DNA of 64,000 bases from Escherichia coli (GCF_041248615.1 NZ_CP158426.1), one strand, 5' to 3'; counted from the first letter of the stretch, positions 4,916-46,918 are shown. Program-made: numbers and translations. Notes: a model not told the origin generated them from the letters alone.

Positions 4916-5974
4916 ATGTTTTCAATGATATTAAGCGGGCTAATTTGTGGTGCTCTGCTGGGATTTGTCATGCAGCGTGGGCGTTTTTGCCTGACAGGTG
5001 GTTTTCGCGATATGTATATCGCGAAAAATAATCGCATGTTTTACGCCTTGCTGATTGCAATTTCGGTACAAAGCGTGGGGGTTTTTGCGTTAATTCAGGC
5101 GGGCCTACTGACTTACGAAGCCGGGGCGTTCCCGTGGCTTGGTACTGTTATAGGTGGGTATCTTTTCGGGCTGGGAATTGTTCTGGCGGGTGGATGTGCC
5201 ACCGGGACCTGGTATCGCGCGGGTGAGGGATTGATCGGCAGTTGGATCGCGCTTTTCACTTATATGGTGATGAGTGCGGTGATGCGTTCTCCACACGCCA
5301 GTGGTTTAAATCAAACCTTGCAGCACTACAGTACTGAACATAACTCTATTGCTGAGACTTTTAATTTGTCTGTGTGGCCGTTGGTTGCCGTTTTGCTGGT
5401 GATAACGCTCTGGGTAGTGATGAAAGAGTTGAAGAAACCAAAATTAAAAGTCGCGACCTTACCACCGCGCCGTACCGGGATCGCTCATATTCTGTTTGAA
5501 AAACGCTGGCATCCCTTTGTCACTGCTGTACTCATCGGTTTGATTGCGCTTTTAGCCTGGCCCCTGAGTGAAGCAACCGGACGCATGTTTGGGTTAGGAA
5601 TCACTTCCCCAACGGCCAATATTCTGCAATTTCTGGTCGCGGGTGACGTGAAATACATTAACTGGGGCGTTTTCCTGGTGTTAGGGATCTTCGTGGGGTC
5701 ATTTATTGCCGCCAAAGCGAGCCGTGAGTTCCGCGTTCGCGCTGCTGATGCACAAACAACATTACGTAGCGGGTTAGGTGGTGTACTGATGGGCTTCGGT
5801 GCCAGCATTGCAGGTGGTTGCTCTATCGGTAATGGACTGGTCATGACTGCAATGATGACCTGGCAGGGCTGGATTGGCCTTGTATTTATGATTCTCGGAG
5901 TCTGGACTGCGTCCTGGCTTGTGTATGTTCGACCGCAGCGTAAGGCGCGACTGGCAACTGCTGCGGCAAATTAA
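4916..5974 (+). CDS. yeeE: YeeE/YedE-family inner membrane transporter (thiosulfate uptake TsuA-like)
   Basis: 352-aa hydrophobic protein with two conserved Cys-containing motifs (GGCATG, GGCSIG); followed by TusA-like gene. Confidence 0.85.
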   Translation: MFSMILSGLICGALLGFVMQRGRFCLTGGFRDMYIAKNNRMFYALLIAISVQSVGVFALIQAGLLTYEAGAFPWLGTVIGGYLFGLGIVLAGGCATGTWYRAGEGLIGSWIALFTYMVMSAVMRSPHASGLNQTLQHYSTEHNSIAETFNLSVWPLVAVLLVITLWVVMKELKKPKLKVATLPPRRTGIAHILFEKRWHPFVTAVLIGLIALLAWPLSEATGRMFGLGITSPTANILQFLVAGDVKYINWGVFLVLGIFVGSFIAAKASREFRVRAADAQTTLRSGLGGVLMGFGASIAGGCSIGNGLVMTAMMTWQGWIGLVFMILGVWTASWLVYVRPQRKARLATAAAN

Positions 5975-32964: not shown

Positions 32965-33040
32965 TGGCTCCTCTGACTGGACTCGAACCAGTGACATACG
33001 GATTAACAGTCCGCCGTTCTACCGACTGAACTACAGAGGA
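32965..33040 (-). tRNA. asnV: tRNA-Asn (GUU)
   Basis: 76-nt sequence on minus strand tcctctgtagttcagtcggtagaacggcggactgttaatccg...gagcca with anticodon loop cuGUUaa. Confidence 0.95.
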
Positions 33041-33295
33041 ATCGTGTGAACGGGGCGCATATTAATGGCAGTACATGGTGATGTCAAAGGGTGAAATGCA
33101 TTTTTTTGTTTGTTTGCTGTCAATTTCAACAAAGTGGTGAGCTTTCAATCTTATTGGGCAATGAACCATCGTGGTGCATACCCTCCTTTTATGGGGCAGG
33201 GGAACGCGACTGCTGATAAAAAGAACCTATGACGAATCTATCATAATCTCTTATTTGACAGTTGGTTAGCTTGTACATCAACGCCAAAATAAAAC

Positions 33296-33311
33296 TGGCA
33301 AGCATCTTGCA
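33296..33311 (+). promoter_or_regulatory. sigma-54 promoter of nac
   Basis: tggcaagcatcttgca matches TGGCA-N6-TTGCA (-24 GG / -12 GC) about 55 nt upstream of nac start. Confidence 0.6.
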
Positions 33312-33366
33312 GTCTGGTTGTAAGTAATGGCGGCACTTGGGCCGATTCTTAAAAACCGGAGGCAAC

Positions 33367-34284
33367 ATGAACTTCAGACGCCTGAAATACTTCGTAAAAA
33401 TTGTAGATATTGGTAGCCTGACCCAAGCTGCTGAAGTATTGCATATCGCACAACCAGCGCTCAGTCAGCAGGTTGCCACACTGGAAGGTGAGTTAAATCA
33501 ACAACTTTTGATTCGCACAAAACGGGGCGTTACGCCAACTGACGCCGGAAAAATTCTCTATACCCATGCGCGGGCCATTTTACGTCAGTGTGAGCAGGCC
33601 CAACTGGCGGTGCATAACGTTGGTCAGGCATTATCGGGGCAAGTCTCGATTGGCTTTGCGCCAGGAACCGCTGCGTCATCCATCACCATGCCCTTATTAC
33701 AGGCGGTTCGCGCTGAATTCCCGGAGGTCGTTATCTATCTTCATGAAAATAGCGGTGCAGTGCTTAACGAAAAACTGATAAATCACCAACTCGATATGGC
33801 GGTGATTTATGAGCATTCCCCTGTGGCTGGTGTATCCAGTCAGGCTTTACTGAAAGAAGATCTTTTTCTGGTAGGAACCCAAGATTGCCCGGGGCAAAGC
33901 GTTGATGTTAATGCTATTGCGCAAATGAACCTCTTTCTCCCAAGTGATTACAGTGCTATTAGACTTCGTGTTGATGAGGCTTTTTCCCTACGGCGACTCA
34001 CGGCAAAAGTCATTGGTGAAATTGAGTCTATTGCCACGCTTACCGCAGCGATTGCCAGCGGCATGGGCGTTGCAGTATTACCCGAATCGGCCGCGCGTTC
34101 GTTATGTGGCGCAGTAAATGGTTGGATGTCACGCATTACCACTCCTTCCATGAGTCTCTCTTTGTCATTAAATTTACCCGCCAGAGCGAACTTATCGCCA
34201 CAGGCACAGGCAGTGAAAGAGTTGTTAATGTCAGTGATGAGTTCTCCAGTGATGGAAAAAAGGCAGTGGCAATTGGTGAGCTAA
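33367..34284 (+). CDS. nac: nitrogen assimilation control protein (LysR family)
   Basis: 305 codons from MNFRRLKYFVKIVDIGSLTQAAEVLHIAQPALSQQV; sigma-54 promoter upstream. Confidence 0.9.
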   Translation: MNFRRLKYFVKIVDIGSLTQAAEVLHIAQPALSQQVATLEGELNQQLLIRTKRGVTPTDAGKILYTHARAILRQCEQAQLAVHNVGQALSGQVSIGFAPGTAASSITMPLLQAVRAEFPEVVIYLHENSGAVLNEKLINHQLDMAVIYEHSPVAGVSSQALLKEDLFLVGTQDCPGQSVDVNAIAQMNLFLPSDYSAIRLRVDEAFSLRRLTAKVIGEIESIATLTAAIASGMGVAVLPESAARSLCGAVNGWMSRITTPSMSLSLSLNLPARANLSPQAQAVKELLMSVMSSPVMEKRQWQLVS

Positions 34285-34385
34285 GCGTTATATCGGGATG
34301 GAATAAGATGCGGGTTTTTATTATTTGTTATGCCGGGCATTAGACTTTAACAATAACGGGATATCTGAACTGCCCGGAGTTTACC

Positions 34386-35336
34386 GTGAATTTCCAACAA
34401 CTAAAGATAATCCGCGAGGCTGCACGTCAGGATTACAACCTGACAGAGGTTGCGAATATGCTTTTTACCTCACAGTCAGGCGTCAGCCGTCACATTCGGG
34501 AACTGGAGGATGAACTTGGCATCGAAATATTTGTTCGACGAGGTAAGCGACTGCTGGGCATGACTGAACCGGGCAAAGCATTACTGGTCATTGCAGAACG
34601 CATTCTTAATGAAGCCAGTAATGTTCGTCGGCTTGCAGACCTGTTTACCAACGATACGTCTGGCGTTCTCACTATTGCAACGACGCATACTCAGGCACGT
34701 TATAGCTTGCCTGAGGTCATTAAAGCTTTTCGCGAACTTTTCCCGGAGGTTCGGCTGGAGCTAATCCAGGGTACACCACAGGAAATTGCGACGTTGTTGC
34801 AAAATGGCGAAGCTGATATTGGTATCGCCAGCGAGCGTTTGAGTAATGACCCGCAGCTCGTCGCCTTCCCGTGGTTTCGTTGGCACCATAGTTTGCTTGT
34901 TCCACTCGATCATCCCTTGACGCAAATTACACCGTTGACGCTGGAATCAATAGCGAAGTGGCCGTTAATTACTTACCGACAGGGGATTACGGGGCGCTCA
35001 CGTATTGATGACGCATTTGTCCGCAAAGGTTTGCTGGCAGATATTGTATTAAGTGCGCAGGATTCTGATGTCATTAAAACCTATGTTGCTCTTGGGCTGG
35101 GGATCGGATTAGTTGCCGAACAATCCAGTGGTGAACAAGAGGAAAAGAATTTAATCCGTCTGGATACGAGGCATCTTTTCGATGCTAATACTGTCTGGTT
35201 GGGACTGAAGCGAGGGCAACTTCAACGTAACTATGTCTGGCGCTTTCTGGAACTTTGTAATGCAGGACTGTCAGTTGAGGATATCAAGCGCCAGGTGATG
35301 GAGAATAGTGAAGAGGAAATTGATTATCAGATATAG
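34386..35336 (+). CDS. cbl: LysR-family regulator Cbl (sulfonate/sulfur starvation, CysB-like)
   Basis: 316-aa ORF MNFQQLKIIREAARQDYNLTEVANMLFTSQSGVSRHIRELE... Confidence 0.9.
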   Translation: MNFQQLKIIREAARQDYNLTEVANMLFTSQSGVSRHIRELEDELGIEIFVRRGKRLLGMTEPGKALLVIAERILNEASNVRRLADLFTNDTSGVLTIATTHTQARYSLPEVIKAFRELFPEVRLELIQGTPQEIATLLQNGEADIGIASERLSNDPQLVAFPWFRWHHSLLVPLDHPLTQITPLTLESIAKWPLITYRQGITGRSRIDDAFVRKGLLADIVLSAQDSDVIKTYVALGLGIGLVAEQSSGEQEEKNLIRLDTRHLFDANTVWLGLKRGQLQRNYVWRFLELCNAGLSVEDIKRQVMENSEEEIDYQI

Positions 35337-35373
35337 CAAAAAGCCCGCTATAAAAGCGGGCTTTTCAGAAATT

Positions 35374-35449
35374 TGGCTCCTCTGACTGGACTCGAACCAG
35401 TGACATACGGATTAACAGTCCGCCGTTCTACCGACTGAACTACAGAGGA
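35374..35449 (-). tRNA. asnU: tRNA-Asn (GUU)
   Basis: Identical 76-nt sequence to asnV on minus strand. Confidence 0.95.
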
Positions 35450-35609
35450 ATCGCTGTTGAGGCACATCTTAACGGCGAAAAATCTTTTGTCAAACCCGAT
35501 TTTTAAATTTCCCAACTGTTTGCCGTTTCTATCAACAGTTTGTTGCATTTGCAGACAATTTGTTGGCGAAAATCTTTGCAGCTTTGCTGATTCTCCCTCA
35601 TTATTTGAA

Positions 35610-37097
35610 ATGTGGTTTCACTTTCTGCAATTAAGGTCGGCTTTGAATATCTCCTCTGCTTTACGCCAGGTTGTTCACGGCACTCGCTGGCACGCTAAAC
35701 GCAAGAGCTACAAAGTGTTGTTCTGGCGCGAGATAACCCCGCTTGCTGTTCCTATCTTCATGGAGAACGCCTGTGTCCTGTTGATGGGTGTCCTGAGCAC
35801 TTTTCTGGTCAGCTGGCTGGGAAAAGATGCGATGGCCGGCGTGGGATTGGCGGACAGCTTCAATATGGTCATTATGGCATTTTTTGCGGCTATCGATCTT
35901 GGTACCACTGTCGTTGTGGCATTTAGTCTCGGTAAGCGGGATCGACGACGAGCGAGGGTGGCGACGCGGCAGTCATTGGTGATCATGACGTTGTTTGCCG
36001 TGCTGTTGGCAACGCTTATTCATCATTTTGGCGAACAAATTATTGATTTCGTTGCGGGTGATGCCACGACAGAAGTTAAAGCACTGGCGTTGACTTATCT
36101 GGAGCTGACGGTACTTAGTTATCCAGCAGCTGCCATCACTTTGATTGGTAGCGGGGCACTTCGTGGTGCAGGGAATACGAAAATACCGCTACTGATTAAC
36201 GGTAGCCTGAATATTCTTAATATTATTATTAGCGGCATATTGATTTACGGCCTTTTCTCCTGGCCGGGACTGGGATTTGTCGGGGCTGGGTTGGGGTTAA
36301 CCATTTCTCGTTATATTGGCGCAGTGGCAATTTTGTGGGTGCTGGCGATTGGTTTTAATCCTGCGCTAAGGATTTCGTTAAAGAGCTATTTTAAACCGCT
36401 GAATTTTAGCATTATCTGGGAAGTCATGGGGATTGGTATTCCAGCAAGTGTCGAATCAGTATTATTTACCAGTGGTCGGTTATTAACCCAAATGTTCGTT
36501 GCCGGGATGGGGACCAGTGTTATTGCCGGAAATTTTATCGCGTTTTCAATTGCGGCTCTTATCAACTTACCCGGAAGTGCGCTCGGCTCTGCTTCTACGA
36601 TCATTACAGGCCGAAGGTTGGGAGTAGGGCAGATAGCGCAAGCAGAGATTCAGTTGCGGCATGTGTTCTGGCTGTCCACTCTTGGATTAACGGCCATCGC
36701 CTGGCTAACGGCTCCCTTTGCCGGGGTTATGGCATCGTTTTACACCCAGGATCCACAGGTTAAACATGTCGTTGTGATTCTGATTTGGCTAAATGCTTTA
36801 TTTATGCCTATTTGGTCTGCCTCATGGGTGCTACCCGCTGGATTTAAGGGTGCTCGCGATGCACGTTACGCCATGTGGGTTTCTATGTTGAGCATGTGGG
36901 GTTGCCGGGTTGTAGTCGGTTATGTGCTGGGAATCATGCTTGGCTGGGGTGTGGTTGGTGTCTGGATGGGAATGTTTGCCGACTGGGCTGTGCGGGCCGT
37001 GCTGTTTTACTGGCGAATGGTTACTGGACGTTGGCTGTGGAAATATCCTCGATCTGAGCCGCAAAAGTGTGAAAAAAAGCCAATTGTGTCGGAATAA
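35610..37097 (+). CDS. yeeO: MATE-family efflux transporter
   Basis: 495 codons from MWFHFLQLRSALN (ORF track start 35457 lies on top of asnU); 12-TM-like hydrophobic profile. Confidence 0.82.
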   Translation: MWFHFLQLRSALNISSALRQVVHGTRWHAKRKSYKVLFWREITPLAVPIFMENACVLLMGVLSTFLVSWLGKDAMAGVGLADSFNMVIMAFFAAIDLGTTVVVAFSLGKRDRRRARVATRQSLVIMTLFAVLLATLIHHFGEQIIDFVAGDATTEVKALALTYLELTVLSYPAAAITLIGSGALRGAGNTKIPLLINGSLNILNIIISGILIYGLFSWPGLGFVGAGLGLTISRYIGAVAILWVLAIGFNPALRISLKSYFKPLNFSIIWEVMGIGIPASVESVLFTSGRLLTQMFVAGMGTSVIAGNFIAFSIAALINLPGSALGSASTIITGRRLGVGQIAQAEIQLRHVFWLSTLGLTAIAWLTAPFAGVMASFYTQDPQVKHVVVILIWLNALFMPIWSASWVLPAGFKGARDARYAMWVSMLSMWGCRVVVGYVLGIMLGWGVVGVWMGMFADWAVRAVLFYWRMVTGRWLWKYPRSEPQKCEKKPIVSE

Positions 37098-37150
37098 ACG
37101 ACAAAGTGCAGATTATTTCAGCAAACGATTTCAAATTTAAAAAACAGGCT

Positions 37151-37179
37151 TTGACATTGTGGATGGGCATCGCTAATAT
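37151..37179 (+). promoter_or_regulatory. candidate sigma-70 promoter of asnW
   Basis: ttgaca-17 bp-taatat ending 19 nt upstream of mature tRNA 5' end. Confidence 0.5.
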
Positions 37180-37197
37180 TCGCCTCGTTCTCACGAT

Positions 37198-37273
37198 TCC
37201 TCTGTAGTTCAGTCGGTAGAACGGCGGACTGTTAATCCGTATGTCACTGGTTCGAGTCCAGTCAGAGGAGCCA
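37198..37273 (+). tRNA. asnW: tRNA-Asn (GUU); integration target of downstream island
   Basis: 76-nt sequence identical to asnU/asnV on plus strand. Confidence 0.95.
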
Positions 37274-37434: not shown

Positions 37435-38696
37435 ATGTCTTTAAACGATTCTAAAATCCGCAAGTTAAAACCCTCTTCCCGTCTGGTAAAACTCTCCGAC
37501 TCTCACGGTCTGTATCTGCTCGTCAATCCGGGCGGTTCACGCATCTGGTATCTCAAATATCGTTTCAACGGAAAAGAATCCAGAGTCAGTCTTGGCGCAT
37601 ACCCGCTTGTCTCACTGGCAGAAGCCAGGCAACAGCGCGACGGTATCCGTAAGTTACTGGCGCAGAATATCAACCCGGCGCAGCAGCGCATGGCGGAGAA
37701 AGCGGCCTGCTCCCCTGAAAAGTGCTTTAAGGCAGTGGCGCTGGCCTGGCACAAAACCAACAAAAAATGGTCGGCTGATTATGCCGCCCGTATTCTCGCC
37801 AGTATGGAAAACCATATCTTCCCGGCGATTGGTCATCTGCCAGTTGCCACTCTTAAAACGCAGGATTTACTGCTTTGTTGCGGGTTATCGAGGATAAAGG
37901 CTTTCTGGAAGTCGCGTCCCGAACCCGGCAGCAACTCAGCAACATCATGTGCTATGCCGTTCAGCAGGGGCTTACCGAAAGCAATCCGGCGCAGCATCTG
38001 GATGGCGTTGTCGCCTCACCCGTAAAGAATCACTACCCCGCGTTACTGCTGGAGCGGTTGCCCGAACTGCTTGGCCGCATCGGTGACTATCAGCAGGGCC
38101 GGGAGTTAACACGGCTGGCGGTGGTGCTGACGTTGCACCTGTTTATCCGTTCCAGCGAACTGCGTTTCGCCCGCTGGAGCGAGATCGATTTCAGGCACAA
38201 AATCTGGACCATCCCCGCCACCCGCGAGGCAATCGACAAAGTACGGTTTTCGGGGCGTGGCGCAAAAATACGTACCCCGCATATCGTGCCGCTCTCCCGC
38301 CAGGCGATTGCCATTCTGAAACAGATACAGGAGCTTTCCGGCCATCTGGATCTGGTGTTTCCCGGTGATCATAACCCGTACAAGCCAATGAGTGAAAACA
38401 CCACCAACCGGGCGCTACGCCTGATGGGGTATGATACGAAAACTGAAATCTGCGGGCATGGACTCAGGGCGATGGCCTGTAGCGCCCTGGTGGAGTCGGA
38501 GCTGTGGTCACGCGATACGGTGGAGCGGCAAATGAGCCACCAGGAGCGTAACAGCGTGCGGGCAGCCTATGTGCATAAAGCGGAGCATCTGGAGGCCAGA
38601 AAGGCCATGATGCAGTGGTGGTCGGATTATCTGGATGTGTGCCGCGAGGGGTATGTTGCGCCGTACATTTATGCCCGGCAGCATAAGGCAGCCTGA
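37435..38696 (+). pseudogene. P4-type tyrosine integrase, interrupted by a frameshift near 37870
   Basis: N-terminus MSLNDSKIRKLKPSSRLVKLSDSHGLYLLVNPGGSRIWYLKYRFNGKESRVSLGAYP typical of P4-family integrases; reading frame changes between ORF 37333-38025 and ORF 37875-38696. Confidence 0.8.
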
Positions 38697-38849
38697 ATCA
38701 GAAATAACGGAAATCATTAAAAATGTAAAAGCAGATCCTGATTGACCGGGATCTGCTTATTGTATTGAGAAGTATTACCATTTTTCTGTTATTATCAATC
38801 GGAAAGTATCTAAAAATATTTGGCCCCAAATAATTTTGGTGAAAACCAA

Positions 38850-39270
38850 TCAATAAACCATTTATCAATAGGTAAGTACCGGAAATTATTCCAGTAGAAT
38901 ATTTTCAGGCGATTGCCTATTAATAAATACATTATTGATAGATAAGTGCCTTCTGTGATTTGTCCGCAAATCACAGAAGATGAAAACCTATCAATACGGG
39001 ATATTTTCACGGAAATACCAATTAATACTCCAGAATATCTCCTGACCATATACTCTGAAACCTGTAAGAACTGCATCAGATATTGAGAGACCATATAGAT
39101 ATAAGTCTGAAATTATTTTGTTTCCAATGATTTCAGGCGAAAACCTATCAATGCATCTGTTTTCAATAGGCAGCCACCTTCCGTGATTAACATGTTAATC
39201 ACGGAAGGTGAAAAGCTATCAATAATCGATATTTTCACGGAATTACCACTTAATACATCCCAAAAAATGC
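38850..39270. repeat. AT-rich array of ~110-bp imperfect direct repeat units, each containing a GTGATT-type palindrome
   Basis: Palindromes cttctgtgattt-gtccgc-aaatcacagaag (38950-38979) and ccttccgtgattaac-at-gttaatcacggaagg (39177-39208) with compensatory arm changes; flanking tatcaata and gatattttcacgg motifs repeated. Confidence 0.65.
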
Positions 39271-39852
39271 GCCATAAAATACCGGGCAATCTTTCCTGAT
39301 ACACATTATCACTGCACCAGCTATACAGAGACAAAATAATCTGCACCAGCCCCTGTAAATCGGTTATTTGTGCCAGTGTCCCGCCGCTCTACCTGTTCAG
39401 GGTTGTGCCAGTTTCTGGCCCTTTGGTTTTCGGCCCTTTCCGGTCAGGCGCTGTTACCCTTATTGCCCCTTAACCTTTATGACCCTTTCCCTTTCTGACG
39501 CAACCAGTTTATTTTGAAATGCTCCATGACAGTCTGCACCAGACTGTATTTTCACCACAGGATAACGATCACAAAGTGCAAAAAAATAACATGAAGCACC
39601 GAAGATTGTTAATCTATATGTAGCAGGTAATGATGTCAAAAACTGTCGCAGCATTTTTTATAAAATTATGAGACATTCTGTGGGCATATAATATATGTCA
39701 CAAGATGCAGGAAAACAAAGAGAGAGTTTTCAGATATAATCCCGCGTTAGAATTAATGTGATGCCCCGGTGAATTTACATTTTAAAATTTCCCTGTCCCG
39801 TAATATCGGTAAAAACGATTGAAACACCAACTATTAATCGGGAACGTCTCGA

Positions 39853-39871
39853 GTGATTACAGGGTAATCAC
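39853..39871. repeat. third GTGATTA palindrome
   Basis: gtgattac-agg-gtaatcac; same half-site as the two palindromes at 38950 and 39177. Confidence 0.55.
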
Positions 39872-40033
39872 TATAATATCCCGGCAAACTATATTGGTTA
39901 AGCAGGAGAATCTGATCAGTTGATATTTATTCGTCATGCTGTAACGATATTTTCACAATATAAACCCGTTCGCCCCCTGCGCCAGATCCGGTACAGAGGG
40001 TACGATAAATCGCTGTCGTTACGCAGTAACGTA

Positions 40034-40650
40034 CTATTTTGCGACATTCATGAATTCAGTCATTCCTCCCTCCAGCGGTAGCCGTACACCTGTTTCACCC
40101 AGCGACCGCGACCGTCGCCATGACCCAGATCCGTCGCCGTCAGCGCCAGTGACTCCTTTTCGCTGAATCCCTGCGCCAGTATCCAGGACTGTCGTATAAC
40201 GGGGACGCCCGCCTTTGGTGCCAAATACCACTTTTAGCCGGGTTTCACCGCGGGAAATGGCTTTCAGCCACGTTTTCAGCGACTGTGAACTCTGTACCGC
40301 CTCCTGCGAACGCAGCCCCATCAGCCGCGCAATCTCCAGGCTGCTGCCAGCCCTGCGTCCTGAGTACGGGCTTTCTCCATCACCTGCCTGCGTCCAGCCT
40401 GTCTCAGCACGGCCCGCAACGCTGCCATTTCGTTTTGCAACGTTCGTAAACCAATATCCAGCTCCAGCCGTTCCTCAATGTAGCATTCGATATGGCGAAC
40501 CTTGATCTGCTCCACCCGCTGGATCTGGATATTCAGCGCCCGTAAATGTTCACTGAACCGTTTTGTAATATGGATACGGTCATTCACCGTTTTGAAGCTG
40601 CCGCCCGCTTTCTTCGCCAGCGCCTTCATTTCACTGCTTAATTTACTCAT
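40034..40650 (-). pseudogene. tyrosine recombinase-like remnant (frameshifted, truncated)
   Basis: ORF 40321-40650 resembles integrase N-terminal SAM-like core-binding domain; adjacent ORF 40034-40321 in another frame carries a GTKGGRPR segment; total too short for an intact recombinase. Confidence 0.4.
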
Positions 40651-41416
40651 GAATCCCTCTGCAACAAAAACAAACAGTCTCCGGCGTGTGCTTTTTGGCT
40701 GCGCCAGAACGATACCTTTACGCCGGAGTGGTAGTTTGTTGAGGTTTAGGGAGTTTCAGGCTGTACGCAGTACAGACTGCCTGCGAAGCAGGAGTGTCTC
40801 CGGGGCTTCTTGCCCCCCTCGGTATCGATCTTTTTCTCCTTTACTCTTAGCTGACAGCGGCCCCAAAGGGCATGTCAGACGGCGGAAATATGGCGCAGGC
40901 CAGAACTGGCGCGGCTTGTGGCGGTGAGTTGTGCGGCGTCACTTTGCTTTTTCGCTGGCGCGACCAAAGTGACGCCTCGTCTGGTGCAGGGGGTAAACGT
41001 TACGTTTCTGGTGCAGGGTGACGGTCACGCGGCAGCAAAGCCTGACGGCAATGCAGGCCGCAGCCCGTCAATGTAAGGCGCTGGTTGTCAGCAGAAGATA
41101 AAACCCGGCAAAGCCAGAGTGTCAGCCCGTAAAGCCGGGTATCTGGTGCAGTGATGGTGTATATGTACGTCAGTCTCAGATGCAGGTATTTTTGCATCCC
41201 CGGCGTTTTCAGAGATCAACGCCGGTAAAGGATGCCATGCTGGCGAAGCCAGGCGCTTCTTTCAGACGTGAAGCGACAAAGGGACTGCCCGGAGGCAGTT
41301 TGTTGCAGGCGGGAGACTGCGCCATTATTTCTGGTGCAGGAAGGAAAAACTGTTTCCGGGTTTAAAAGATTGTTTGCTTACCTGGTGACGGAAAAACTGC
41401 CGCGCTTCGCTTGTCT

Positions 41417-41566: not shown

Positions 41567-41755
41567 TCAGATAATTTCCGGTGATGTTTCCAGCGCATCC
41601 GCAATCAGTTTTTCGCCGCGCGGCCTGGAGCGGGTCAGCGCATTTGCCAGCGTGGAAGACGCCAGCCCGGCCCTGCGGGAAACCTCAGCCAGCGATGTTC
41701 CCTTTTTTCTCAGGCCCGCGATAATATCGGCGGGGTGCCAGTCGGGTTGCATCAT
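41567..41755 (-). CDS. Ner/Nlp-like HTH DNA-binding protein (short form)
   Basis: 62-aa ORF with DWHPADIIAGLRKKGTSLAEVSRRAGLASSTLANAL, close to the Ner/Nlp (SfsB) signature. Confidence 0.7.
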   Translation of the reverse strand: MMQPDWHPADIIAGLRKKGTSLAEVSRRAGLASSTLANALTRSRPRGEKLIADALETSPEII

Positions 41756-42213
41756 GCTGGCCTCCCGTCGATAACCTGTATGCCGTCAGCAGTACATATC
41801 CAGCGTGGGGCGTTCAGATTGGCGGCAAAATACCAGACCAGTTCGCACAGCAGCCCGGTCAGCGTGGTTTCGGTTTCCGGCAGCAGCACGTGGCCGTTCA
41901 GTATCTGCGTCAGCGCCAGGCAGTAATCGCAGAGTGATCCTGCATCAGGCTCAAAACCGGGTGAAACATCGGGAAGATCATTCGTAATAAACCCGTCAAT
42001 CAGATGTGGTGGGATCGGCTCGTTCAGCGTGGGCCGCAACAGTGCAAGACAGGTATTAAGCCTGCCACAGAGCGCCGTTTTCAGCGCCGGATCGCAGCAC
42101 TCGATGAGCGTTGTGGCAACGCGATCGCAGTACTCCGCCAGATCGGTGAAATCGGTAGCGGCACTAAAGGGAACAGCAAGTAAATTGCATTCAGAGGTGA
42201 GAGTAGTCGCCAT
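41752..42213 (-). CDS. hypothetical Cys-rich protein (153 aa), translationally coupled to Ner-like gene
   Basis: ORF overlaps downstream Ner-like start by 4 nt (ATGA); 9 Cys; no recognisable family. Confidence 0.45.
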   Translation of the reverse strand: MATTLTSECNLLAVPFSAATDFTDLAEYCDRVATTLIECCDPALKTALCGRLNTCLALLRPTLNEPIPPHLIDGFITNDLPDVSPGFEPDAGSLCDYCLALTQILNGHVLLPETETTLTGLLCELVWYFAANLNAPRWICTADGIQVIDGRPA

Positions 42214-42734
42214 AAGGCCGTCTACAGTGAGTGATAAATATTCCAGCCACTGGAGAGGCTAATCTCACGGGTGGTGGAACCGGACGGGGTTAGCCTTACC
42301 AGCCTCACTGACACTGGCGCGTCTTTCGACGCCCCCGCCCGATCCCGCCATTGAGATGAGACCGTGCGCGACACACAAATATTGTATCGTCAGTGAGGAT
42401 CTTCAGGAGGCTAATCCCGACGCCTGATTTTGCAGGCGCGGCGCAACAATACAATGTTCGGTAATTTTCAGCAAGAGGTTTAGCGGAAGCAGACGCACAG
42501 GAAAATACAATCACGCGATAAATATTAAATACAATTATATTTATATAAAATATATATTGAGCAATATGCAGACACTTTCCAGTAAATATCCTGTCAGTTA
42601 ATTCGTCCCGTTGATATCAGTCAAAAAAATAAATGTAAAAAGAGCGTATTTCGTTTCATACAGTAACGTTATTTATCATTTTGTCCGGTGTCGCCAGCAT
42701 CAGGCCAGATGAACCATAAAAAAGGATATCAGCG

Positions 42735-45700
42735 ATGAGCGGAAAACCGGCAGCACGTCAGGGCGATGCCACAATGAAAGGTGGCCCGATAGTCCAGGGG
42801 TCGGCAGGCGTGAGGATTGGCGCGCCAACCGGCGTGGCCTGTTCAGTGTGCCCCGGCGGATTCACTTCCGGTAACCCGGTGAATCCGCTGCTCGGTGCAA
42901 AAGTACAGCCCGGCGAAACCGATTTCGCGCTGCCCGGCCCGTTACCGTTCGTGCTCTCCCGCACCTACAGCAGCTACCGGACGAAAACCCCTGCGCCCGT
43001 CGGTATCTTCGGTCCTGGCTGGAAAGCACCCTTTGATATCCGCTTACAGATACGCGATAACGAACTGATACTCAATGATAACGGTGGCAGAAGCATTCAT
43101 TTTGAGCACCTGTTTCCCGGTGAGGATGGCTTCAGCCGCAGCGAATTATTCTGGCTGGTGCGCGGCGGCGTGGCGAAACTGAATGAAAGTCACCGTCTTG
43201 CCCCACTCTGGCAGGCTCTGCCGGAAGAACTCCGCATGAGTCCGCATATTTATCTGGCGACGAACAGTCCGCAGGGGCCGTGGTGGATACTCGGCTGGAG
43301 TGAGCGGGTACCGGGTGTGGATGAGGTGCTGCCTGCGCCATTGCCGCCGTACCGGGTGCTGACCGGCCTGGTGGACCGCTTCGGGCGTACCCTGACCTTC
43401 CGGCGTGAGGCAGTTGGCGAATTTACCGGGGAAATCACCGGCGTGACCGATGGCGCAGGCCGTCAGTTCCGCCTGGTGCTGACCACGCAGGCGCAGCGGG
43501 CGGAAGAGGCCCAGCAGCAGGCGGTTGCAGCCGGAGCAAAACGACCAGATATCCCGGTTTCATTGCCGGACTATACAGAATATGGCCGGGATAACGGCAT
43601 CCGCCTGTCAGCGGTGTGGCTGACGCATGACCCGGAATACCCGGAGAATTTACCTGCCGCGCCACTGGTGCGCTACGACTGGACGCCACGCGGTGAACTG
43701 GCGGCGGTGTATGACCGCAGCGGTACGCAGATGCGCCACTTTACTTACGATGATAAATACCGGGGCCGGATGGTGGCGCACCGTTACGCAGGCAGGCCGG
43801 AGATGCGTTACCGCTACGACGACATCGGGCGCGTGACGGAACAACGTAATCCGGCGGGTTTAAGCTACACCTATCAGTATGAGAAAAACCGCATCATCAT
43901 CACCGACAGCCTGAACCGGTGCGAGGTGCTGCATACAGAAGGCGAAGCCGGGCTGAAACGGGTGGTGAAAAAAGAGCACGCTGACGACAGCGTCACACAG
44001 AGTCAGTTCGATTCCATTGGCCGCCTTCAGTCACAGACGGATGCGGCAGGCCGGACGACAGAATACAGTCCGAATGTGGTGACGGGTCTCGTCACACGCA
44101 TCACCACGCCGGACGGCAGGAAATCGGAATTTTACTATAACAACCAGAACCAGTTAACCTCAGCATCCGGGCCTGACGGACTGGAAATGCGCAGGAAATA
44201 TGATGAGTACGGGCGTCTGACGCAGGAAACCGCTCGCAACGGCGATATCACCCGCTACAGTTATGATAATCCGCACAGTGAATTACCCTCTGCAACTGAA
44301 GATGCGACGGGTAGCCGCAAGCAGATGACGTGGAGCCGTTACGGGCAGTTACTGACTTTCACCGACTGCTCAGGCTACCAGACCCGTTATGAATACGACC
44401 GCTTTGGTCAGATGACGGCGGTCCACCGTGAGGAAGGTGTCAGTCTTTACCGCAGCTATGACAGCCGTGGTCAGTTAATCTCGGTGAAAGATACGCAGGG
44501 CCGTGAAACGCAGTATGAGTACAACGGTGCAGGCGACCTGACCGCCATTATCACGCCAGACGACAACAGAAGCGAGACACAGTACGATGCGTGGGGAAAG
44601 GCCGTCAGTACCACGCAGGGCGGGCTGACGCGCAGCATGGAATACGACGTTGCCGGACGTGTCATCAGCCTGACCAACGAGAACGGCTGTCACAGCGACT
44701 TCAGTTACGATGTGCTCGACCGCCTGATACAGCAGAGCGGCTTTGACGGGCGGACGCAACGTTACCGTTACGACCTGACCGGGAAACTCACGCAGAACGA
44801 GGATGAGGGGCTTGTCACCCTCTGGCACTACGACGAATCGGACCGTATCACACACCGCACGGTGAACGGCGAACCGGCAGAGCAGTGGCGGTATAACGCC
44901 CACGGCTGGCTGAAAGAAATCAGCCACCTGAGCGAAGGTCACCGGGTGGCGGTGCATTACGGCTATAACCGTAAGGGACGTCTCACCGGCGAGCGCCAGA
45001 CGGTGCATAACCCGGAGACGGGGGAACTGCTCTGGCTGCATGAGACAAAACACGCCTACAACGAACAGGGTCTGGCAAACCGCGTCACGCCGGACTGCCT
45101 GCCTGCTGTGGAGTGGCTGACCTACGGCAGCGGTTACCTGGCGGGGATGAAGCTGGGCGACACGCCGCTGCTGGAGTACGCGCGCGACCGCCTGCACAGA
45201 GAAACGGTGCGCAGCTTTGGCAGCATGGCAGGCAGTAATGCCGCATACGAACTGACCAGCACATACACCCCCGCAGGCCAGTTACAGAGCCAGCACCTGA
45301 ACAGCCTGGTGTATGACCGTGACTATGGGTGGAATGACAACGGCGACCTGGTGCGCATCAGCGGCCCGCGACAGACGCGGGAATACGGCTACAGCGCCAC
45401 GGGCAGGCTGGCGAGTGTGCGCACCCTCGCACCGGACCTGGACATCCGCATCCCGTATGCCACGGACCCGGCGGGCAACCGGCTGCCGGACCCGGAGCTG
45501 CACCCGGACAGTACACTCACAGTGTGGCCGGATAACCGCATCGCGGAGGATGCGCACTATGTCTACCGCCACGATGAATACGGCAGGCTGACGGAGAAGA
45601 CGGACCGCATCCCGGCGGGTGTGATACGGACGGACGACGAGCGGACCCACCACTACCACTACGACAGCCAGCACCGCCTGGTGTTCTACACGCGGATACA

Positions 45701-46916
45701 GCATGGAGAGCCACTGGTCGAGAGCCGCTACCTCTACGACCCGCTGGGACGGCGAATGGCGAAAAGGGTATGGCGGCGGGAGCGTGACCTGACGGGGTGG
45801 ATGTCGCTGTCGCGTAAACCGGAGGAGACATGGTACGGGTGGGACGGCGACAGGCTGACGACGGTGCAGACTGACACCACGCGTATCCAGACGGTGTACC
45901 AGCCGGGAAGCTTCACGCCGCTCATCAGAATCGAAACAGACGTGACCGAACTGGAGAAAGCGCAGCGGCGAAGCCTGGCGGAGAAGTTACAGCAGGAAGG
46001 GAGTAAAGATGGTCACGGCGTGGTGTTCCCGCCTGAACTGGTGCGGCTGCTGGACAGGCTGGAGGGGGAAATCCGGGCAGACCGTGTGAGTGACGAAAGC
46101 CGGGCGTGGCTTGCGCAGTGCGGGCTGACGGTGGAGCGGCTGGCGGCACAGATCGAGCCAGTTTATTTGCCTGAGCGAAAAATACATCTTTATCACTGCG
46201 ACCACCGGGGACTGCCGCTGGCGCTTATCAGTACTGAAGGTGCAACGGAATGGCGTGGGGAGTATGACGAGTGGGGGAATCAGCTTAATGAGGAGAACCC
46301 GCATCATCTGTTCCAGCCATACCGCCTGCCGGGGCAGCAGTACGATGATGAATCGGGGCTGTGCTATAATCGTTATCGTTACTACGAGCCGTTACAAGGG
46401 AGGTATATTACACAGGACCCGATTGGGTTAAATGGGGGGTGGAATTTATATAAATATCCGCTGAATCCAATAAATTATGCAGATCCTCTTGGCTTAGCCG
46501 TAGATATAAACCACTTCCCAGTCAACGAAGACATACGAAATTATGCAGAGAAAGTTTGGAATAATCCTAATATCATTACAATTGGAACACATGGTGATCC
46601 TCAATCAGTATATGATGAAAATTATAATAAGATAGATGTCAAGACATTAGCTAATGAGGTTCGAAATCATCCTAAATTTAAACCTGGAATGTCAGTAAGA
46701 CTGTTATCCTGTAATACAGGAAAAGGAAATAACTCTTTTGCACAGCAATTGGCAGATGAACTAGGTGTGAGAGTCTATGCTCCTGACCAATATGACTGGT
46801 ACTATTCAAATGGTAAGGTAGAGCCTTGGGGAGGATTCTATGATGCAAACAATCAATTGCAAATGGACACGAATCAGCCTGGACATGAGTTTACATTCAA
46901 GCGAAGGAAACCATAG
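42735..46916 (+). CDS. rhs: Rhs-family polymorphic toxin (PAAR-like N-terminus, YD-repeat core, divergent C-terminal domain)
   Basis: 1393-aa ORF; N-terminus [11 protein letters not shown]...[26 protein letters not shown] like E. coli RhsA-C; many YDxxGR repeats; DPIGL...DPLGL core/toxin boundary motif. Confidence 0.9.
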
Positions 46917-46918
46917 GT

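Follow-up and report, generated by a model that had tools for sequence, protein, structure and literature searches.

Covarying palindromes between convergent recombinase genes in a tRNA-Asn island of Escherichia coli

The locus and its genes

The window analysed here is a stretch of 64,000 nucleotides from Escherichia coli (GCF_041248615.1, NZ_CP158426.1), and its subject is an array of palindromes within a 1364-bp gap, without annotation, between two convergent recombinase genes, int and int2, of an island inserted at a tRNA-Asn gene. The dyads of this gap, P1, P2 and P3 among them, are real, conserved and non-coding, their arms covary, and they are restricted to this integration module. The stretch is 100% identical to NZ_OW967178, where an island of ~11 kb is inserted at asnW between yeeO and yeeN, and gene annotation was taken from a 100%-identical RefSeq locus (L001; the other loci compared are numbered likewise).

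The tRNA gene asnW, located by a tRNA search at 37198-37273, adjoins the P4-type tyrosine integrase gene int (37435..38696, plus strand), which is annotated in L001 as a frameshifted pseudogene and whose intact homologue matches NCBIfam PRK09692. A terminator hairpin at 38729..38758, recognised in a scan for terminator-like sequences and in alignments and kept across genera, forms the left edge of the gap; as an A-run precedes it and a T-run follows it, it could end transcripts from both directions. Beyond the gap, int2 (40060..40651, minus strand; Pfam PF12834 and PF12835) encodes a XerC/D-like tyrosine recombinase of 294 aa when intact and is a frameshifted pseudogene here. The protein is of the simple XerC/D-like type without an arm-binding domain, and its gene is annotated elsewhere as an ‘integrase domain’ gene; a protein search returned 1,611 relatives, and a sequence search with the int2 profile found none with a solved structure. 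Directly upstream of int2 lies the EFASI RNA motif (RF02957; 40706..40833, minus strand; Rfam 100.8 bits), which is 55 bp away from int2 here and stands 60-190 bp upstream of it in 8/8 other loci scanned. In Photorhabdus the STAXI motif (RF01728) precedes EFASI (L031 3068-3260). This placement identifies the int2 family as the ‘XerDC integrase’ of the STAXI/EFASI association.

Further along the island, a gene for a Ner/SfsB-like helix-turn-helix protein (41568..41756, minus strand) is cut by a stop to 62 codons from the 84 of its intact form. It is followed by a 153-codon open reading frame (ORF), for which no family was found in Pfam, NCBIfam or PHROG; a relationship to P4 ORF151 was considered and rejected, the two being unrelated. 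Both belong to an operon headed by a C4 antisense/isrK/c4-a1b1-like region, the C4/CI-like immunity RNA that Rfam places at 42267-42452. The Rhs toxin gene (42736-46917) is intact, as is the TPR gene downstream. In this strain int and int2 are each inactivated by a frameshift and the Ner-like gene by a premature stop, so that the island resembles an immobilised remnant. Within 4.3 kb (32965-37273) there are three identical tRNA-Asn genes, interleaved with nac, cbl and yeeO, and related islands attach at each of the three as well as at asnT.

The dyads and their array

The gap holds three perfect dyads of at least 9 bp with a spacing of at most 8, against 0.05 +/- 0.22 expected from 300 dinucleotide shuffles, which bears out the three elements named in an earlier note on this DNA; a 12-bp stem was reached in none of the 300. 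P1 (38950..38979) reads CTTCTGTGATTTG-tccg-CAAATCACAGAAG, with 13-bp arms around a 4-nt centre. In most relatives it has 14-bp arms and a 2-nt centre, and the arms are invariant in 16 distinct arrays. P2, previously described as a 32-bp palindrome, is in fact a perfect palindrome of 36 bp (39175..39210; CACCTTCCGTGATTAACA/TGTTAATCACGGAAGGTG) and the longest perfect dyad in the window. P3 (39852..39872; AGTGATTAC-agg-GTAATCACT) has 9-bp arms and a 3-nt centre and has the half-site GTGATTA in common with P2; among relatives its arms are kept and its centre varies (AGG, AGGG, CGG). Folded as single-stranded DNA, the three give z-scores of -8.2, -7.8 and -3.3, respectively. The two compensatory differences between the arms of P1 and P2 quoted in the earlier note are correct, and its description of the region as AT-rich agrees with a GC content of 0.30-0.36 in the dyad region against 0.55-0.61 in the flanking genes. 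Outside P1-P3 the window contains no GTGATT dyad. A fourth dyad, CTGTGA-N14-TCACAG near 39678, is present in some orthologues only and degenerate here, and was left uncounted. An Rfam scan at permissive thresholds returned for P1 and P2 only chance-level matches to microRNA hairpins (E 0.14-3.4, far below the gathering scores).

P1 and P2 are part of an Escherichia-specific, AT-rich tandem array of ~70-bp dyad units (38786..39300, plus strand), all in one orientation and similar to one another with z of 6.5-29.5 in unit-to-unit comparison. Its other dyads are h0 (38812..38837; AAAAATATTTGG cc CCAAATAATTTT), h0b (38882..38906; GAAATTATTC cagta GAATATTTTC), which has one T.T mismatch here and is perfect in S. 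arizonae L079, and h1.5 (39107..39136; CTGAAATTATT ttgtttcc AATGATTTCAG), with one T.G pair. The stems of these three are unrelated to GTGATT, yet belong to the same array as P1 and P2, so that a definition of the array by the GTGATTA half-site was too narrow; six units with unrelated stems all retain the dyad.

Sequence beside the dyads is shared as well. In most units a 17-mer, (G/A)TGAAAACCTATCAATA, stands 3' of the dyad, for example ATGAAAACCTATCAATA at 38980..38996 (plus strand), with further copies at 38839-38855, 39137-39153 and 39208-39224; GTGAAAACCTATCAATA follows most array dyads, including P1 and P2. Downstream of the 17-mer in the P1 and P2 units comes GATATTTTCACGG (38999-39012 and 39227-39240), and imperfect inverted repeats I1 and I2, of 41-43 nt, overlap neighbouring units. 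The proposal that each dyad sits in a repeat unit of ~110 bp stands for P1 and P2, whose repeat unit measures 131 nt, is 73% identical and is spaced 228 bp. It was not clearly borne out for P3, the flank of which has only TAA.CGATATTTTCAC in common with the array units (z at most 3.8).

Distribution

The whole gap was found by megablast in 519 of 5,426 complete E. coli genomes, and the array alone by blastn in 461 of them, at 1-6 places per positive genome and chromosomal in all cases; a blastn search of 72,556 plasmids and 50,697 phages with the array gave no match. The order tRNA, int, array, core (a segment of the gap described below), int2 holds in every locus inspected at asnT, asnU, asnV and asnW. 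The search of other asn-tRNA islands that the earlier note suggested finds the palindromes again in the homologous islands of these four genes. A type VI secretion system (T6SS) island at aspV has a single array unit.

Of 77 int2 loci examined in other Enterobacterales, those with the unit motif belong to E. whittamii, E. albertii and S. enterica arizonae (1-2 units) only. GTGA-type dyads were found nowhere else, and more than 60 int2 loci outside Escherichia and S. arizonae lack the palindromes. The int/int2 gap measures only ~200 bp in Klebsiella indica, Pseudocitrobacter, S. arizonae, Erwinia mallotivora and others, where it holds the int terminator and the conserved core (window ~39338-39545). 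On this comparison of gaps the array, to the left of the core, and the AT-rich P3 segment, to its right, are lineage-specific additions, and neither is therefore required generally for int or int2 to work. A metagenome scan with the unit motif produced 40 loci and few new variants. In nearly all of 65 genome records listed the stretch is left blank by annotation, and no description of the array was found in the literature on PF12835, EFASI, Ner operators, the 9-mer described below or asn-tRNA islands.

Conservation and covariation of the arms

In seven E. coli orthologues, 80-100% identical overall, only 4/78 columns of the P1-P3 arms are variable, against 259/1,190 (21.8%) in the rest of the gap (binomial p 5e-5, Fisher p 1.3e-4, both of which ignore shared ancestry). 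The array as a whole diverges like the most variable codon position of int and int2, with a pairwise identity of 0.86 vs 0.88-0.91. Invariant blocks that are not palindromic also occur in the gap, some of them of 28-33 nt (39020-39047, 39575-39607, 39645-39666 among the set), and because they are as invariant as the arms, they suggest that the gap is functional.

Covariation was assessed over five helices in 16 distinct arrays, metagenome copies included. In these, the paired fraction of cells is 93.5% and falls to 33-48% once partners are slid; changes on both sides are found in five pairs, a number reached by 5/500 shuffles, and the covariation score is 0.040 vs 0.028 +/- 0.002. The changes themselves are varied. 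The h0 position reads AAAATTATTCAC..GTGAATAATTTT in islands other than this one, which amounts to three symmetric double changes; across islands it is TTTGG/CCAAA or TTCAC/GTGAA. In L117 the mismatch of h0 is repaired, an A-T pair of h1.5 has become C-G, and one symmetric change falls inside the GTGA core (CCATGA...TCATGG). A single P2 pair takes three states, G-C in the majority of copies, G.T in the lineage of L006 and A-T in L117. The P2 centre is ACATGT or, in the shorter array of L087, ACGCGT, and in L088 a dyad resembling P1 differs by three symmetric double changes. Mismatch columns comprise 6 G.T, 3 A.C and 9 of other kinds, with no strand preference, the wobble asymmetry not being significant. 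The arms pair to within a centre of 0-4 nt, the central dinucleotide of which appears unconstrained.

Units of the array also turn over. L010 (E. whittamii, 5671-5950) has a hybrid unit in which the P1 dyad is joined to the downstream flank of P2, a joint that implies deletion of 228 bp between repeats. In L004/L007 and several metagenome copies the h0 unit has been lost cleanly (71 bp) or 14 bp are duplicated (CCAGAATATCTGCA), and the arrays of L087 and L088 are short. This turnover is consistent with unequal recombination or slippage between units.

Other features of the gap and of the int2 module

The core (39338..39545), defined by alignments and the sole part of the gap common to other genera, contains repeated copies of GGCCCTTT and CTGCACCAG. 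In other genera its ~200 bp (GGCCCTTT, or AAAGGGCC on the int2 strand) occupy the space between the int2 stop codon, which they follow directly, and the int terminator (L013 4879-5081). Two short-gap versions translated by eye contain no conserved ORF, and the core could be an element of the int2 3' untranslated region or a DNA site.

To the right of the core are two promoter-like sites on the minus strand, recognised by consensus match only: TTAACA-18-TATTTT with an upstream TG (extended -10) at 39583..39612, which lies in the 33-nt block 39575-39607 invariant in the seven orthologues, and TTGACA-17-TAGATT at 39639-39611. Both are predicted to read leftwards, and would do so through the core and the array.

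A 9-mer, CTG(C/T)(A/G)CCAG, is strongly clustered and polarised around int2, with 10/14 of its copies in the window falling within 39312-41331: six on the plus strand (39312, 39341, 39534, 39977, 40171, 40699) and four inverted (40981, 41008, 41143, 41331). In 14 loci from several genera in the int2 clade of at least 70% identity (L010-L022, L073, L074), an 8-mer is found at conserved offsets inside int2 and downstream, where ~0.05 copies per gene would be expected by chance; inside int2 it sits in different reading frames, and upstream of EFASI it is inverted. Identification of the 9-mer with Chi, KOPS or STAXI was rejected, the STAXI consensus being without CTGCRCCAG.

Compared against L013/L015/L029/L073/L074, the int/int2 gap of several loci carries inserts. 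Cedecea L018 (4879-5873) has an ATPase-like ORF flanked by a ~24-nt near-identical duplication, GCGG(A/T)TCTGCTTTTTATTTGCAC; Serratia L012 (4879-5603) has an unrelated insert; and E. albertii L011 (2892-4019) has a small ORF bounded by CGTTACGCAGTAACG palindromes, a copy of which the window has at 40017-40031. The gap has the appearance of an insertion hot spot.

Perfect hairpins with 19-22-bp stems and 3-4-nt loops are present ~0.9-1.1 kb upstream of int2 in other loci (L019 3077-3119; L073 3074-3115; L030-L035/L072 ~2870-2920; L040 3010-3053); their stems differ, and a GACAAGCG-like motif then follows each (GAGCCAAGCG in L073). A second family of hairpins, with 19-bp stems, lies immediately upstream of int2 in a clade of ~49% identity (L047/L052/L054 3934-3979). 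Both families look like covarying structured elements, and neither has an equivalent in the window.

What the dyads may be kept for

The array matches nothing in the collections or papers searched, its distribution is narrow, and we rate it as a set of element-specific extragenic palindromic repeats or operator-like dyads. The explanation we favour, tentatively, is an array of hairpins akin to repetitive extragenic palindromic (REP) sequences and bacterial interspersed mosaic elements (BIMEs), which would be kept for the pairing of its arms, either in convergent transcripts or as a cruciform. A lineage-specific, non-coding palindrome array would have been inserted between the convergent recombinase genes of a tRNA-Asn/Asp island integration module, and selection would keep the pairing capacity of both arms in each unit. 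The gap would be reached only by the tails of two convergent transcription units, the int transcript entering from the left and, from the right, that of the Ner-like/EFASI/int2 operon or one begun at an internal minus-strand promoter. Palindromes would fold in whichever of the two transcripts carries them, and the hairpins could block read-through and 3' exonucleases, thereby insulating and stabilising both messages; a cruciform or a single-stranded DNA hairpin would meet the same pairing constraint. Transcription across the dyads, and their insulating or stabilising role, are what we infer.

Pairing is taken as the property that is kept because unrelated stems all keep the dyad, because double changes are symmetric and because P2 is perfect over 18-bp arms, which are longer than the ~6-8 bp usually contacted by a helix-turn-helix monomer. 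These facts favour hairpins in RNA or single-stranded DNA, or cruciforms, over a single operator sequence. The location, in a convergent-gene gap beside a possibly bidirectional terminator, also matches that of REPs. As the GTGATT sites of P1-P3 are conserved in sequence as well, they are probably recognised by a protein in addition.

Several observations weigh against this explanation. A T-run follows none of them in the terminator scan or in the 3' flanks of P1-P3 on both strands, and wobble-type mismatches show no strand bias, so that no RNA strand is indicated. Pairing runs up to a centre of 0-2 nt, which is beyond the need of an RNA hairpin and closer than an RNA loop allows. The arms of P1-P3 are invariant and not merely paired, and the half-site of P2 and P3 is common to both without clear flank homology; both facts speak for recognition of a specific sequence. 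Other genera have related modules that function with no such array, and the units of the array, unlike REPs, are not dispersed in the genome. The earlier note had proposed an operator or an RNA hairpin: the dyad itself stands, on pairing and covariation, and each of the two readings draws on part of the evidence. Symmetric covariation speaks for pairing, whereas a protein is suggested by the half-site common to P1-P3 and by their invariant sequence.

A protein-binding role is made plausible by that invariance and common half-site, together with the absence of a favoured strand and the complementarity of the centres. P1-P3 would then be operators of a dimeric protein, the leading candidate being the Ner/SfsB-like repressor of the island, controlling promoters in the gap; we regard this as a possible explanation, though one to be held with some doubt. 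The three sites share GTGATT(A/T)...AATCAC, with arms invariant among orthologues and centres that vary, and P3 has the P2 half-site without demonstrable flank homology and overlaps promoter-like hexamers. The island protein is of the Ner family, and the P2 half-site CCGTGATTAAC matches the half-site of the D108 Ner operator, read from phage record GQ357916 as CCGTGAGCTAC-N8-GTAGCTCACGG, at 8/11 positions in the same orientation. This match is borderline after counting the arms and offsets tried (our own estimate is ~0.06), and the 11-mers are separated by 2 bp in P2 vs 8 bp in D108. Asymmetric mutations of P2 are confined to lineages without ner, and P2 is perfect in 9/9 lineages that keep the Ner-like gene; the correlation is weak, however, because it rests on about two mutational events in related lineages, and P1 and P3 are intact in ner-less islands. 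Symmetric double changes do occur, in L117 even in the GTGA core, although they could not rescue the binding of a fixed homodimer. The sites are located between convergent 3' ends, on the far side of int2, at about 2.4 kb (1.7-2.8 kb over the dyads) from the Ner-like gene and away from the promoter of that gene; a perfect palindrome of 36 bp exceeds what an operator needs; and the modules of other genera, in which a Ner-like gene is assumed from the conserved layout, are without such palindromes. The Ner-like protein is a real candidate for the binding of the dyads, on weak evidence. By eye, the spacing of the dyads fits none of the consensus sequences for IHF, CRP, FNR, Fur, LexA, the lambda operator, matS or SlmA, and none is claimed.

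Rather unlikely, in our judgement, is a view of the array as AT-rich palindromic satellite DNA, selfish or neutral, which would have grown through inverted and tandem duplications that the gap tolerates, and in which intra-strand template switching (quasi-palindrome correction) would keep the symmetry without any function. Its divergence, equal to that of the most variable codon position of its neighbours, would fit, as would the gain, loss and recombination of units evident in the 71-bp deletion, the 14-bp duplication, the L010 hybrid and the short arrays of L087/L088. Palindromes that reach a 0-2-nt centre are what templated repair would give; most related modules are without the array; and in the window the dyads are still perfect, with int, int2 and the Ner-like gene all pseudogenes. 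Template switching, however, keeps symmetry and not sequence, and leaves unexplained the low variability of the arms (p = 5e-5); the non-palindromic blocks of 28-33 nt that are equally invariant suggest a functional gap.

It is improbable that the dyads are DNA sites of int2, with a lox/dif-like core or as a folded single strand, in an insertion hot spot. The geometry suits simple tyrosine-recombinase sites: inverted arms of 10-11 bp flank a centre of 7-8 bp, the centre varies and the arms do not. Moreover, int2 is without an arm-binding domain; inserts in the int/int2 gap differ among genera, and the Cedecea ATPase ORF has its flanking duplication. Read as a core site, P1 is ..GTGATT TGCCCGCA AATCAC.., and the centres of P2 and P3 are AACATGTT and ACAGGGT. 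Since these centres differ, mutual recombination of such sites would be impossible, and they are largely self-complementary; over 60 int2 loci beyond Escherichia and S. arizonae are without the palindromes; and there is no R/L box of the attC type, no extrahelical base and no cassette between sites. A broader version, to which we give very little weight, would make the gap a DNA-capture platform whose palindromes, folded as hairpin or cruciform, are recombination or landing sites of int2, in a system on tRNA islands resembling an integron or a lox array; it is left open by the genus-specific inserts at the same junctions and by the polarised 9-mer CTGCRCCAG that brackets int2.

More improbable still is a descent of the array from the iteron region (crr/ori-like) of a P4-type satellite replicon, of which it would be a relic. 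The P4 crr consists of two ~120-bp direct repeats with motifs in both orientations, the array has two 131-nt repeats with GTGAAAA/TTTTCAC motifs, and the island possesses a P4-type int and a C4/CI-like immunity RNA. However, the homology to P4 crr/ori suggested by the GGTGAATAAT..GGGTGAA motifs was rejected as not significant against shuffles in local alignment (z at most 3.2, an AT-rich 16-mer only). The type 1 iteron TGTTCACC is missing, only the look-alikes TTTTCACG and GGTGAAAA being present; the annotation of eight E. coli islands examined shows no primase/replicase (alpha) gene; and the position relative to int differs from that in P4.

Finally, the dyads might be by-products of small protein genes (minus-strand ORFs of 94 and 77 codons and plus-strand ORFs of 46 and 38 codons), one RefSeq record annotating a 99-aa hypothetical protein at the site and the 38-codon ORF being open in 6/7 full-length arrays compared, but this coding explanation is hardly credible and is rejected: no sequence but this window gives the 94-codon ORF its ATG, and relatives carry frameshifts or stops in it, the 77-codon ORF is broken in them, neither matches a PHROG family, the 46-codon ORF lacks its start codon elsewhere, nearly every change in the 38-codon ORF is non-synonymous, and annotation leaves the site blank in nearly all records listed. 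Together with the near-invariant arms and the symmetric double changes, the broken ORFs uphold the earlier proposal that selection acts on the dyads and not on the small ORFs overlapping them.

Implications and comparison with known systems

About 1/10 of complete E. coli genomes carry this 1.3-kb stretch that annotation pipelines leave blank, and it holds some of the longest perfect palindromes of the region, better conserved than their surroundings. It presents itself at this point as a well-defined unannotated element with testable alternatives, and a new mechanism is not demonstrated. As hairpin insulators, the dyads would widen the REP idea to a form that is AT-rich and specific to one element. 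Were they operators, the Ner-like regulators that P4-type islands commonly encode would have a first target in them, and if they were int2 sites, they would reveal how tRNA-Asn/Asp modules pick up or shuffle cargo such as Rhs toxins, T6SS clusters and adhesins.

Among known systems, Ner operators of D108 and Mu are likewise inverted repeats bound by a small helix-turn-helix protein of the Ner family, a gene for which the island carries. Their half-sites of 11-12 bp enclose an AT-rich spacer of 8 (D108) or 6 (Mu) bp vs the 2 bp of P2, and P1 and P3 match D108 less well; they lie between divergent promoters next to ner, whereas the array dyads lie between convergent 3' ends and number three to six of differing sequence. 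The sites loxP, FRT and dif also have two inverted arms of ~10-13 bp around a 6-8-bp centre, and here too a recombinase gene adjoins. The partners of such sites, however, share an identical and usually asymmetric centre, unlike P1-P3, where the centres differ and are mostly self-complementary, and a site of this type should travel with its recombinase, whereas the dyads do not follow int2 outside Escherichia (1-2 units in S. arizonae). Integron attC sites have the boxes R''/L''-L'/R' (RYYYAAC/GTTRRRY) and ORF cassettes; the stems of the array are perfect and without boxes, and its ~70-bp units contain no conserved ORF. The crr of phage P4 resembles the array in having two direct repeats, of ~120-130 bp, with short motifs in both directions, and in its setting in a P4-like element. 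EFASI and STAXI are structured non-coding motifs of the same XerC/D-like integrase module; the array, in contrast, is on the 3' side of int2, matches neither model and is far more AT-rich and repetitive.

The likeness to REPs and BIMEs, drawn from layout and pairing, extends to short clustered palindromes (21-36 bp) in an unannotated gap between convergent genes, to neighbouring inverted repeats that share arms and to a conserved pairing that would allow folding in transcripts of either strand. It stops at the stems, which are GC-rich in REPs and AT-rich, differing between units, in the array. REP palindromes are imperfect, of ~35 nt, carry a GTAG/CTAC-type tetranucleotide, frequently stand where convergent operons end (3') and are dispersed in hundreds of copies over many unrelated intergenic sites; no gene for a RAYT transposase was seen in the loci examined, nor is any transposase annotated in the islands inspected. 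The array, for its part, is confined to one island module, its stems are perfect to a centre of 0-4 nt, and a conserved 17-mer flanks its dyads.

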